Assembly: GCA_951406725.2 (NCBI GenBank)
Contig: OX597832.1
Coordinates: 68,572,001 to 68,636,000, forward strand
Origin: Octopus vulgaris
Taxonomy: Eukaryota
DNA: 64,000 bases
Direction of reading: 5' to 3'
Shown here piece by piece: positions 18,532-59,700 of this stretch. Positions within the stretch are counted from its first letter, which is position 1; every line of letters begins with the position of its first letter. The translations under genes and the position numbers were made by a program. The notes below the pieces were generated by a model. The model worked only from the letters and a program-made list of their open reading frames with translations, was not told the DNA's origin and made no database searches.

Positions 18532-19008
18532 TATATCAATCATAAGAGCATGCAAAGGTGCATACCTGCTAGAAAGAGGAGTTAAATACGACAGAAAAAC
18601 AACAGTAGTCAGGTGAACAGGCCAAAAGAAATCTTTCACATAGCCCAATGCTCTGTGGATATACTTGGACCATGGTTTCTGATCTGACAAACACCCTCAC
18701 CTTCGTTCTGATTTTGGTGCAAAACAATTCAGAATGCCAGCAGACTTCAGATGGGTTGTAAAGGTTTTTCAGTCAGTAGTATTTGCTGAGGAAGGTGATG
18801 CTGCTTGTCAGACCAGAAACCATAGTTCAAGTATCTCCAAATACCAAGAAATATATAGAATTAGGCTATATAGGTTATGCGAAAAATTTTTTTGGGGACT
18901 GTTCACCCGACTACAGCTGTTTTTCTGTCGTATTATTGGTGGTTTAAATGAGGGTTTAACTCCTCTTCCTAGCAGGTAGGCGCATTTGTCTGCCCTTATG
19001 ATTGATAT
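18532..19008. mobile_element. Old palindromic HHR cassette with diverged inverted arms
   Basis: Three blocks of inverted homology, e.g. tatatcaatcataagagcatgcaaaggtgcatacctgctagaaagaggagttaaa vs its inverse at 18954-19008. Begins in a TA/TATG tract. Confidence 0.9.
18779..18834 (+). ncRNA. Type I hammerhead ribozyme, probably decayed
   Basis: gtatttg CTGAGGA [weak stem II] GAAA c cata g TT caagtat. The left-arm minus copy reads GAAA ccatgg TC caagt (palindromic stem III, GUC site). Confidence 0.7.
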
Positions 19009-22000
19009 AAATTTTACTTCTATAGCTATCAAATGTTATTTTAGGCCTGCAACCAATTATATTATTGTTGTTGTTGTTGTTGTTGTTGTTATTATCAACT
19101 ATTTATATTGCTGCAGATAATAATAACAATAATAATATCTATATAAATATTCACTCCTGAATATTTGCTCCTTATAATATATATATATATACACCGTGCC
19201 GGTGGCACGTAAAAGGCACCCACTACACTCTCAGAGTTGTTGGCGTTAGGAAGGACATCCAGCTGTAGTAACTCTGCCAAATCAAGATTGGAGCCTGGTG
19301 CAACCATCTGGTTCGCCAGCCTTCAGTCAAAATCGTCCAACCCATGCTAGCATGGAAAGCGGACGTTAAACGATGATGATGATGATATATATATATATAC
19401 ACACAATTACACCCACACATGTGTATACATACACACAATATATGTATTATACAAATACATATATGCTATTATCACACTTATATATCTATATTATATCCAT
19501 GCATTCATATATATATATACACAGCAATATACTATATGTATGTATGTGTGTATGTGTGTGTGTGTGTGTGTGTGCATGTGTAAATATGAGCATGTTTTGA
19601 TTCACACTGCTAATTTTTCTCCTGCAGATATTTCTACACATCACAATTTTTCCTATTTTTACTCATGTTTTTCTTTCCTATTCTCGTTATGCATAAAACA
19701 TTTATGAAGAGTTCATTAAATACAAAACAAAACATAAGTAGTCACATGTTATCACAATAATTCTGCCCCCACCATACACACCCCCAATGTCAAAAAAAAA
19801 ACAACAGTAACAACAAGATGTTTCGATTTCATAAAATATGGTAAAAATAAATTAAATGCCAATTCTATGGAAGCATTGTTTCAGAAATAGTAAAAATACA
19901 CACACACACACACACAAAAAAGGAAGAGAAAGTTTTACTTCATCTATTTCAATATGCTATGTATAGCAGTTAGCACTTACCTTCTTGCAGTTGACAAACT
20001 CTTTTAATGTAGCACTTTCTCTTTTTTTGTGATTAAGTGTTGATTCCATTGTCTGTGTGAAATAAGAAATTAGTCATGAATGTGTAAGCACATGCATATA
20101 CATACATACATACATACATAAATATATATATATATATATATATATATATATATATATATATATATATATATATATATATACATACATAAATATTTACATA
20201 CATATATACACACACACACACACAAATATATATATATATATATAGACATATATACACATATCTACACATACACACACATAAACATATACTTACACATATA
20301 TATATCATCATCATATATATACACATACACAAACGCACACACATGTTTATTTGCATGTGTATATGAATGTATGTATATATATATATATATATATATACAT
20401 AAATATATACATATATATACTTATATACATATATACACACACACATACACACACACACGCACACACACACACACACACATATAGAGACATATATGTATAT
20501 ATATAAACATATATATGCATGTATGTATATATGATTATGTGTGTGTAACTTGTGTAGCTAAGTGTTAAGAAAAAAAGCAAAGAACCCAACACACACAGCA
20601 TATACCAAAGTGTAACAAACACATAAAAAATATATATGAATCCCACATATAGAAAATGTTGCAAGAAATCTTAGCAGCTTGAAATATCAAATAATATGAA
20701 CATTACAGGAAAACTTTTGATAAAATAAATTACACAACAGCCACAGCTGGGGAATTGTAATGAAAATCTTACCACATTTAAAATTAATTTCACTTTCCAA
20801 TCAATATACATACATATATATACATATATATATATATATATATATATATATATATATATATATCATGGTTATACTCATATATGTGTGTGTGTATATATGT
20901 ATATATATGTATGCATGTATGTGTATGGGTTTATGTAAATGTATGCATAGAATACTTTTAGGAACATTTAATTTTAGACTAATACATTTCAGCATTTCTA
21001 AAACATTCTATGAAATGAGTTGAATTGTTTAAAGTATTTCATTTTGTAGTGAAGTTTTACTTCTATGCGGTTAATTGATCTGCCTGAAACAGCAGCCAAA
21101 TCTGCATGTTTTTCAGGTCAGATTGAGATGGTTGGGCACAGCTGTTGGGACACTGGTGATTTGCTATATCTTTTGCAAAAGCCTTCAGCTAACCAAAGAC
21201 TTGTGAGTAGATTTAATGGACAGAAACTGAAATAAGTCTACGGTGTGTGTATGTGAGAGAGAGAGAGAGAGAGAGAAAGTGAGAGAGAGAGTGTATGTGG
21301 GCATTTGTGCATGCATGCGTGACAGCAAGTTTGGTCCCACTGCATGGTATCGTGGTCAAATATTCTTTTCTCTAGTCTTGGATGAAGCTTTGGGAGTGAA
21401 ACTGAACAGAAATGCAAAACATGTTACACAAAAATATTTTGATTTTAAAATCCGATTCCCTTTGTGACTCACAAAATAGCCTCACTCTTACTTCACTTCA
21501 ACCACATTGAGAACATCCACTACTGGCACCCACTATTGACTCAAAATGTTCACAACAACCTACAAAAAACCATTATCAACAACCGTATTAATGATTAAAA
21601 ATGCAACACAATGTTTTCATAATTAACAAGGAAATGAATCGACAACATCACTCATATCTCTTCCTCTAACATTCCCTGCACTAGTGACTGCCTGTCTTTC
21701 TCTCTGTCAATGTGCCTCACACCCAATGTCCATTGAAATGCTCAACATCAAACATAGACTTGGTGTATCATTATTATTTGGTGTTTTTCTCTTGGTGCAA
21801 TTTAAAAAACAGCAATCCAGGTTTCCTGGCAACTTCCAGCAAAATTGAACAAATTAAAGCCAATGACGTCTTCTTTTAATTTATTATTCACAAACATCCA
21901 CAGCATATAAACTTACAACCTACATGTCATAAAACATTCCCTGCAGCAGGATGATAAAACACACATGCACACATGCACACAAACGCACACATGCACGCAC

Positions 22001-57902: not shown

Positions 57903-59069
57903 TAAAGGAATTTTGTTAATTCATCGTTCAGCTCCATTCTTTCATATATTTATATTTTTAAAATAAACATACAAATTTCCACACGAAAGCACGTAATCTA
58001 TGCCCTAGGCACGTAGCTTCAACCGTGTTTTTTCTGATGTGAATTTGCTACCCAGGTATCAGTTAATTCGAATTATCCTTAATAAGATAATTCATTCAAC
58101 TACTCTAATATATATATATATATATATATATATATATATATATATATATATATATATATATATGTATATATACATACATACGTACGTACACACACACACA
58201 TATATATATATACATAAGCAAACACACACACACACGCATATATATGAAATTATGAGGATAATTTGGTGCTTGACTGTAGAAAGAAAACTTCAAATGACCC
58301 GTCCTTGTATCATCTATGTGGATGTTTTATTGTCCCTTTTTGTATCACCTAGCTGTCCAGAAGTTTTGCGTTCTTGTCCCATTTTGTATTTTATACACAC
58401 ACACACACACGTATATATATACACATATATATATACATATACATACATATGAAACAGTGCTACATTTTAAACTTTCAGTCTATTTTTTGTATTTATATGC
58501 ATATTCATACGTGCATATATACATACATTTATATATGTACTCAAACATATAATCTACCTATCTCTCTATCTAGCCATCTGTCTATCAATCTACACACATA
58601 CACACACACACACACACACACACACACACTCTCTCTCTCTATGTATGTATCTGTATAAACATTTATGTGTTATAAAATTACTTATTTTACAGTTAGGAAT
58701 TTCACTCTTTTTTCTTCTTGTAATTTCTGTTGTTGTATATCAGATTTGTACTTTTTTTTTAGCTTTATCCACAGTTTTTGCTGCTTACCAGTTCACAGGA
58801 ATACAATGGTCTCAGTGGAACACTGAGATGTCATTTGCTCAGTTGGGAATACAACTGAACAATTACATTAAAATTGATCAGATGTGCTCTCCAAGTGGAT
58901 TGCAAGATGGTTATTGGCAAGACTAATGTATAGATACATACATACGTTCATATATATATATATATATATATGAAGTGATGGTATGTTGCCAACTTAATGT
59001 GGCAGTCCCATGAAAGGGAAGAATGCTACTGTTATTTAACCCTAGGAAACACCGTTTCCTCTTTACTAA

Positions 59070-59700
59070 ATATACTAAATTTATAATTATATATATAATT
59101 ATATTAAAGGGATTAGGAAAGAAACTTCTCCAACATGCTGAAAGAAGGCAGCAAATGCACCAAAAATCTACTGTGTAACTCCTACAAGACACAGGTTAAT
59201 GAAAAATACGAAATAAAACTTCACAGCAAATTGTATATTGGGTCCAATTTTGGGATGAAAGCAATAAAAAGAGATTATTTCCCACCATCAGCACGATATT
59301 CAAAGAATTTCCTGCAAGGCTATTTTGATGAAATGAAAAAAAACACGTGGCTGAAAGGAAAAATGAGAATTTGACTTTATTTGGTGCATATGCACAGATA
59401 TTTGTATATGGATGTATACCTTTGCTTTGTATGGGTTTATGGTAAGTATCTGTGATTATGTTTCTTTGAATATTGTGCTGAGGATGGGAAATAAGCTCTT
59501 TTTTTGTTTTCCTCCTGAAATTGGACCCAATATACAATTTACTGTGAAGTCTTATCTAGTATTTTGCATCTGCTTACATACAACCTGTGTCTTATAGGAG
59601 TTACACTGTCGATTTCTAGTGTCTTCTTTCAGCATGTCGGAGAAGGTTCTTTCCTGAGCCCTTTAACATAATTATGTATATAATTATTAATTCAGTGTAT
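59070..59700. mobile_element. Old palindromic HHR cassette (arms ~59070-59307 / 59463-59700)
   Basis: Blockwise inverted homology, e.g. gtgtaactcctacaagacacaggtt / aacctgtgtcttataggagttacac and aaattgtatattgggtccaattt / aaattggacccaatatacaattt. Confidence 0.9.
59472..59538 (+). ncRNA. Type I hammerhead ribozyme; decayed partner on the minus strand at 59230-59297
   Basis: attgtg CTGAGGA [imperfect stem II] GAAA ttgg-ac-ccaa TA tacaat. Confidence 0.75.

Follow-up and report, generated by a model that had tools for sequence, protein, structure and literature searches.

Penelope-like elements (PLEs) of the Hydra clade carry hammerhead ribozymes (HHRs) throughout, target (TA)n and leave inverted, 5'-truncated copies. 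The accessible text of the study that describes them (Craig et al. 2021, PMC8557442) lists Hydra-1_Obim, a clade member with HHR and (TA)n target, for Octopus bimaculoides, reports HHRs on both strands of Penelope-13_HM, calls the origin of the structures undefined, and regards that of PLE tandem and inverted insertions with a one-sided tail as unresolved. Pairs of HHRs on opposite strands, ~100-700 bp apart, have been taken as truncated PLEs in the available part of Cervera and de la Pena (2014, PMC4209133). In Adineta PLEs, according to the sections available of PMC3846280, head-to-head is the commonest arrangement, one inverted pseudo-long terminal repeat (pLTR) optionally bears a tail, and self-priming was proposed. 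For the Poseidon element PAc, the accessible text of Frangieh et al. (2024, PMC11167929) gives a predicted dimer, purified protein that cuts and extends both strands in vitro from two start sites bounding the tail, and HHR cleavage that is dispensable in vitro. Metazoan retrozymes are defined, in what is available of PMC7229834 and 10.64898/2026.07.22.740005, as tandems derived from PLEs, and their mobilisation by PLEs has so far been based on co-occurrence and pLTR homology. An O. vulgaris repeat annotation counts 31 recently active PLE families, and no mention of ribozymes was found in its accessible text (PMC13282606). Here we analysed 64,000 nucleotides of the Octopus vulgaris genome (GCA_951406725.2, contig OX597832.1, positions 68,572,001 to 68,636,000, forward strand; the window), which holds seven HHR-bearing cassettes, A to G. 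We assign two of them, D and E, with high confidence to truncated Hydra-type PLEs, and the other five to retrozyme families. Inverted copies of these families across the genome pair their ends in a way that hints at how the inversions arise.

In every family there are two fixed sites for the 3' end, here called proximal and distal, which lie 70-150 nt apart downstream of the HHR. Counting the inverted loci with both outer ends at fixed sites, we found 48 (12 of C, 18 of G, 11 of B and 7 of E), each of which pairs one proximal with one distal end. For G, B and E, searched with queries that reached only to the proximal site and left out the tail, the pairing was seen in 36/36 loci (P 1.5e-11 at 50:50). 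D shows it in 14/14 short palindromes of a position-ordered sample and in 3 long ones, a count conditioned on possession of a distal arm. Loci that end at neither site or are too complex were left out of the tally (L014 and L016 of C; L189/190 of G; L038, L048, L056, L058, L042 and L045 of B; L154, L156, L160, L161, L162, L166, L170 and L179 of E, with the duplicate L169), as were A and F, which are too diverged to score. This short-end/long-end rule is near-strict. The inner (5') ends vary freely, and the arms pass through the HHR cleavage site and, in the retrozymes, through many monomers. By eye, a CC(C)T motif precedes most of the proximal and distal ends by 3-25 nt in all seven families, which are otherwise largely unrelated; it is possibly a shared recognition signal.

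One way to obtain such inversions is self-priming, in which a single cDNA folds back, the route proposed for Adineta PLEs in the available sections of PMC3846280; the second arm would end at AT microhomology with the target, and later asymmetric deletion at the centre would blur the geometry. If one cDNA folds back, its proximal arm cannot overshoot the distal arm on the 5' side by a distance shorter than one unit. The proximal arm does outreach the distal one in 19 of the 48 loci, by 19-560 nt, so that these loci exclude single-cDNA fold-back unless later deletion is invoked. Later one-sided deletion at the palindrome centres is the main rival and could rescue fold-back, and central deletion in palindromes is a general phenomenon. 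However, the rescue needs one-sided deletions of 19-560 nt in all 19 loci, young families included, and in about half of the loci it is the proximal arm that extends further. Moreover, one-orientation copies also end at the proximal site, which therefore behaves as a true start site. The remaining 29 loci are compatible with fold-back (22 match a distal-first and 7 a proximal-first version), many D centres fall on a short self-complementary AGCT stretch, and the arms share subfamily variants (D 12/13, P 0.003), all of which fold-back accommodates. Arm divergence within versus between loci is 1.4% versus 3.5% in G and 0.94 versus 1.19% in C; shared variants of this kind also count in favour of the two-cDNA reading below. 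Taking both sides together, we think fold-back rather unlikely to be the general route.

Our preferred reading is that each of the two nicked strands primed a cDNA of its own, at two different start sites, and that the two cDNAs were probably joined end to end; priming from both nicked ends had been proposed in the initial annotation of the window and is the best-fitting mechanism, with the proximal/distal asymmetry now added. The insertions at (TA)n were most likely made by endonuclease-bearing (EN+) Penelope-like machinery of the Hydra clade. This machinery would use two kinds of template, the PLE's own RNA for D and E, and non-coding retrozyme RNAs of 470-540 nt for A, B, C, F and G. The GIY-YIG endonuclease would nick both strands of the self-complementary (TA)n, and each 3'-OH would prime its own cDNA, one from the distal and one from the proximal site, with short AT microhomology helping. 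In the parent units, ATAT (D) or AAATAT (E) comes after the distal site and gives microhomology to the target. Both cDNAs would halt at variable points and then be joined, leaving head-to-head arms with the tail on one side only. HHR cleavage would not be what fixes the ends, and the template would be uncleaved or circular RNA, because the inner ends show no clustering at the point of HHR cleavage. The two start sites resemble those of PAc in vitro.

More tentatively, a single PLE dimer might hold one RNA at two fixed sites and carry out two simultaneous reverse transcriptions from the nicked (TA)n strands. On circular retrozyme RNA both could run in rolling-circle fashion and yield head-to-head arrays of up to ~31 units, and this might be the general origin of inverted pLTRs with a one-sided tail. 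If so, that origin can be read from thousands of young octopus insertions.

Several observations weigh against the two-cDNA account or the identities on which it builds. Besides the 29 loci that fold-back also fits, B arm divergence is 5.8% both within and between loci and is uninformative on a shared template. The Anolis PLE starts without target homology in the available text of PMC11167929, unlike the microhomology that we infer here. Unscorable inverted loci were omitted from the tally (two of C, six of B, one of G and eight of E, besides a duplicate), and same-type end pairs are possible in L089 of D (both long), L161 of E, L105 of F and the F copy of the window, both arms of which end near the proximal site. 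Loci with one orientation are not rare (5/19 for C, 7/26 for G and 13/30 for B). Minimum free energy folding gave the three-stem hammerhead only in D and F of eight sequences tested. Finally, the retrozymes show no sequence kinship with the pLTRs of D or E, the two compared, so that their mobilising partner is one that we infer.

Alternatively, what moves might be the entire palindrome, copied in one piece as a hairpin ribozyme retroposon. With the whole D cassette as query, the best 30/30 matches were palindromes 98-100% identical, and the predicted fold of the D transcript is one long hairpin (-130 kcal/mol). That sample, however, is selected by its query. In a separate sample of 30 position-ordered D copies, 14 are short palindromes, 13 extend >150 nt and 3 stop short in (TA)n; the centres differ among the copies, and the 13 long ones run far into the repeat-rich 3' region of the PLE. 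D as a fixed ~200-bp palindromic unit was discarded as query bias on the strength of these position-ordered copies. Centres and arm lengths vary in every family, and inversion is present in 14/19 loci of C, 19/26 of G and 17/30 of B. The palindrome is optional and is not itself the mobile unit, a role overstated in the initial annotation; we consider a hairpin retroposon very improbable.

Where two orientations do occur, their polarity is not random, as had been expected genome-wide. All 11 two-orientation C loci in the first 100 of 219 matches (36 loci by our own count) are head-to-head, and over all loci adjacent same-family HHR pairs are head-to-head in 48 cases, tandem in 22 and tail-to-tail in 0, with 24 of the 48 head-to-head descriptor pairs belonging to D and partly drawn from the query-biased sample. 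A first look at the genome gave 1413 candidates for C, 2106 for B, 1161 for D, 72 for F, 142 for A, 2544 for E and 1395 for G, which are not copy numbers; exact patterns matched 2126 times for a D 48-mer and 219 times for a C 24-mer. A DNA query with the D tail by itself, in a search that skips common words, gave no match.

Cassettes D and E appear from their sequence to be 5'-truncated copies of autonomous Hydra-clade PLEs. At locus L255 a tandem unit of 5193 bp is attached to a D arm, its open reading frame (ORF) starting just beyond the tail, with the motifs RWR, DKT, YRDD, CxCx5C, YIG, CxxC and CxH. E extends, at L181, into a tandem unit of 4233 bp with reverse transcriptase (RT) and GIY-YIG coding regions. 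Each parent has one RT plus a C-terminal GIY-YIG, recognised by motifs, with broken reading frames in the copies at hand; Pfam assigned no RT or GIY-YIG family to these Hydra-type proteins. Their motifs match the Hydra clade (DKT, RWR in D or RWL in E, CxxC and CMH, with no CCHH seen), the CxCx5C linker being present in D and absent in E. Like other EN+ PLEs, both show partial tandems (pLTRs) with an HHR, 5' truncation, an inverted 5' copy and a one-sided tail. L252 is a short D copy, and in L251 the long open frame of another PLE (4452-6760, minus strand; RT with DKG plus GIY-YIG) is nested in a D copy. In L222 and L237 of D the second arm seems to start inside the element, at an AT-rich position that precedes the HHR, which would invert the sequence without duplicating it, in the manner of L1 twin priming.

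The other five families, A, B, C, F and G, are by their sequence tandem non-LTR retrozymes of 470-540 nt. Upstream of the HHR, the sequence runs back into the tail of the same family, the period being 472 (A), 475 (B), 480 (C), ~537 (F) and ~510 nt (G). Each monomer has one type I HHR, 30-35% GC and no ORF, the figures for F being based on few tandem copies. The longest arrangement seen (G000:C1:64639836-64654946) is a ~15-kb array of ~31 C monomers after one inverted unit. Among HHR copies chosen by similarity, where tallies count copies and not events, the covariation expected in the stems is found in G (stem I 28 G-C and 6 A-U of 34, core intact in 34/34) and A (stem III 9 C-G and 8 U-A of 22, core conservation 0.96 versus a background of 0.83); B and F show little of it, with 29/34 and 11/30 copies intact, and F is mostly decayed. 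Contigs of four public runs, none of them on record as RNA, cover monomer C; contigs cannot show RNA, ends or circles.

That all the non-coding families are instead pLTR remnants of autonomous PLEs yet to be found is a reading that holds for D and E, fits the treatment of opposite-strand HHR pairs as truncated PLEs in the available part of PMC4209133, and draws some room from locus flanks that spanned only 1.5 kb. Against it, in all five the stretch preceding the HHR comes round to the tail of that family every 470-540 nt, and matches to PLE proteins, screened for in loci of A, B, C and F, occur in 0 loci of C, 0 of F, 1 of A and 2 of B. These matches are weak and were judged bystanders by position. 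It seems highly doubtful that the five families are pLTR remnants, and we retain the retrozyme assignment.

The (TA)n preference proposed at the outset is borne out: at 26/28 D and 19/21 E sites the distal end has (TA)4 no more than 32 nt away, versus 7% in the background. Target-site duplications cannot be read inside (TA)n. Terminal inverted repeats in a TA context are also a feature of miniature inverted-repeat transposable elements (MITEs) and of foldback DNA transposons that duplicate a TA target, and long-read data can yield artefactual palindromes by fold-back assembly. Neither explanation fits the unequal ends, variable inner ends, tandem arrays and RT plus GIY-YIG parents; besides, A and F arms have diverged by at least 20%, one B arm holds a short interspersed element (SINE), and the distal TA junction of C recurs in contigs of two public runs. 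The MITE/foldback class, with fixed equal termini and no RT parent, was set aside because ends are unequal, centres variable and RT parents found, in line with the initial view that these are not MITEs. Transposons of this class and assembly artefacts are the least probable of all the readings. D and E adjoin within one (TA)n tract (55961-56014), and in L183 a D arm lies beside a C array, which suggests that (TA)n tracts are reused. Mirror flanks of 90-96% identity surround (TA)n-rich tracts at 1446-1905, 44584-44805/45930-46233, 46245-46394 and 59925-60235, the second pair lying on either side of cassette C; of 1601 microsatellite tracts put through a strict scan, 7 had such mirror flanks.

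In the window itself, a structure descriptor found 11 type I HHRs at strict settings, versus a mean of 0.017 (maximum 1) in 60 local shuffles, and 13 at relaxed settings. The 13 matches in 64 kb compare with 1 in seven arbitrary 10-kb stretches, so that the background density figure covers only 70 kb of the genome; on this comparison the window is unusually rich in HHRs, a hot spot. The core CUGANGA...GAAA...UH and stems I-III are present in 10 cassette arms, a third copy in C, G and a lone HHR, and the core is incomplete by descriptor in the left arms of A and F. No hammerhead was among the Rfam matches listed (150 of 403), only microsatellite and hairpin miRNA look-alikes. The initial annotation had named six cassettes, A to F. 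With microsatellites masked, inverted arms were recovered at 6/6, and the minus-left/plus-right polarity of their HHRs likewise at 6/6. An HHR in each arm, by contrast, is complete in four of the six (B, C, D and E) and fails in the left arms of A (truncated core) and F (decayed core); the TA-rich junctions stand for most cassettes and not for F, whose left end adjoins no (TA)n tract and whose right end adjoins (GT)n. Sequence-unrelatedness holds for most pairs, 20 of 21 scoring at or near shuffle level, the exception being B and F, distant relatives with a local score of 105 versus a shuffled maximum of 61. The set was incomplete: a seventh cassette, G, and a lone type I HHR at 3920-3964 (minus strand), without inverted partner or (TA)n nearby, had been overlooked. 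Links to PLEs and to retrozymes were right, as shown by the full RT plus GIY-YIG units of 5.2 and 4.2 kb for D and E and the 470-540-nt tandem monomers with HHR. The cassettes are not one non-autonomous system, since two PLE truncations (D, E) stand beside retrozymes (A, B, C, F), and the count of five non-coding, non-autonomous cassettes falls with D, the 3' end of an autonomous 5.2-kb PLE. About 25 more type I HHR variants of other families lie in the flanks of L027, L083, L106, L234, L098, L144 and other loci; four are in head-to-head pairs, two in ~560-nt tandems, and several have palindromic stem III loops.

Cassette A (18537-19174), of an old retrozyme family with a ~472-nt monomer, has a short minus arm with a proximal end and a long plus arm with a distal end at ~19174, a (TA)n junction ~165 nt beyond the end formerly placed at 19008. 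Its type I HHR (18779-18834, plus strand, by descriptor, as are the ribozymes below unless marked as decayed) has UU at the cleavage site in this copy; the left-arm copy (~18660-18704) is without the CUGANGA part, the arm being truncated inside the catalytic core. Cassette B (24786-25736; 475-nt monomer) has its left end proximal and its right end distal, with HHRs at 25343-25403 (minus) and 25472-25532 (plus), its left arm split by a SINE-like repeat at ~24909-25340, and (TA)n tracts at 24713-24785 and 25736-25812. Cassette G (38895-39343; ~510-nt monomer) joins an 86-nt minus arm with a distal end to a plus arm with a proximal end, without overlap, has a single HHR (39109-39170, plus) and lies near a (TA)n tract at 38861-38899. 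The young retrozyme cassette C (44837-45904), flanked by (TA)n at 44806-44836 and 45905-45929, consists of 1.6 minus units with a proximal end fused head-to-head with a plus arm with a distal end. It includes one full monomer (45098-45577, minus; 480 nt, 33% GC, no ORF) and three HHRs, in two tandem minus units (44972-45019 and 45452-45499) and in the plus arm (45594-45641).

Cassette D (55763-55973), probably an inverted insertion of an autonomous Hydra-clade PLE with extreme 5' truncation, has HHRs at 55849-55899 (minus) and 55902-55958 (plus) and a 69-nt tail on its left arm. Cassette E (55993-58107), which looks like a 5'-truncated inverted insertion of a second Hydra-like PLE, has the tail on its right arm and HHRs at 56057-56137 (minus) and 57820-57902 (plus). 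The GIY-YIG remnant noted in the initial annotation lies in E, at 56318-57220 (plus), with an Asn-rich linker, and is 93-98% identical to L181. (TA)n tracts occur at 55741-55762, 55974-55995 and 58108-58180. Cassette F (59067-59700), of an old retrozyme family related to B with a ~537-nt monomer, has an HHR at 59472-59538 (plus) and a copy with decayed core at ~59228-59298 (minus).

Other repeats are present in the window. A 5'-truncated PLE at 32902-34042 (minus strand), presumably Neptune-like by its motifs, has a 352-aa thumb, CxxC linker and GIY-YIG, its 3' end in (TA)n and a 64-nt inverted duplication at its 5' end (33782-33845/33979-34042); no HHR was found in it by descriptor. A 485-nt direct repeat at 5321-6754, with a period of ~950, is bounded by (AAT)n; a frame at 5696-6028 resembles what we take to be the C-terminal end of a long interspersed element (LINE) with restriction-enzyme-like (REL) endonuclease. 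A mariner-type transposase remnant lies at 26255-27123 (plus; Pfam Transposase_1, E 8e-23), with 40-nt inverted repeats at 25817 and 27072.

With the inverted retrozyme arrays and the end rule in hand, a mechanistic question that had stayed open can be put to the test: the rule and the arm geometry provide a genome-scale test of self-priming against two cDNAs and tie both to the two in vitro start sites. Five non-coding retrozyme families with the same signature would be direct structural evidence for mobilisation by PLE machinery. Such cassettes could, by the thousand, be passing for MITEs in annotations, and any of the palindromes may be a potential long double-stranded RNA hairpin. L1 twin priming inverts without duplicating; here, unlike there, the arms usually overlap and duplicate the HHR.

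Set beside the Hydra clade, as far as the accessible text of PMC8557442 goes, D and E share the C-terminal GIY-YIG, the lack of CCHH, DKT, RW-x and CxxC/CxH, as well as the HHR near the 3' end, the (TA)n target, 5' truncation, the inverted copy and the tail at one end. The clade has CxCx5C; D shares it, and E is without it but has an Asn-rich linker. The units here, at 4.2 and 5.2 kb, are longer than the published ones (mostly <3 kb) because of long repeat-rich 3' regions, and the tails, at 70-150 nt, compare with 30-40. No end-pairing statistics were found in that text. The retrozymes resemble metazoan non-LTR retrozymes (Cervera and de la Pena 2020, PMC7229834; Li et al. 2026, 10.64898/2026.07.22.740005), which in the parts available are likewise non-coding, low-GC, dispersed tandem monomers of a few hundred nt with one type I HHR, alongside PLEs. 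Those were published as head-to-tail, whereas ours are often head-to-head in (TA)n with PLE-type paired ends; the words 'inverted', 'microsatellite' and 'cephalopod' have 0 occurrences in the accessible text of PMC7229834. Ours have no homology to the two pLTRs compared, in contrast to the PLE-derived published ones. Our search of the literature, which stopped short of most subscription papers, bioRxiv supplements and Repbase/Dfam, found no report of PLE twin priming, of retrozymes in octopus or in inverted arrays, or of a rule by which the ends pair. The architecture had been thought possibly undescribed, but for PLEs it is known from the available parts of PMC4209133, PMC3846280 and PMC8557442, the last with a Hydra-clade element in O. 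bimaculoides: opposite-strand HHR pairs, head-to-head inversion, one-sided tails and (TA)n targeting are already published. The present cassettes share the dual HHRs, head-to-head arms, one-sided tail and Asn-rich inserts with the elements of the first two of these sources. Apparently new, in that we did not find them in print, are retrozymes as inverted arrays, the end rule, and the 19/48 geometry against fold-back. Self-priming was proposed for the Adineta PLEs (available sections of PMC3846280), whereas the arm geometry here favours two cDNAs, and PAc, in which both strands are nicked and extended and two RT start sites bound the tail (accessible text of PMC11167929), is like the model put forward here in these respects but starts without homology to its target.

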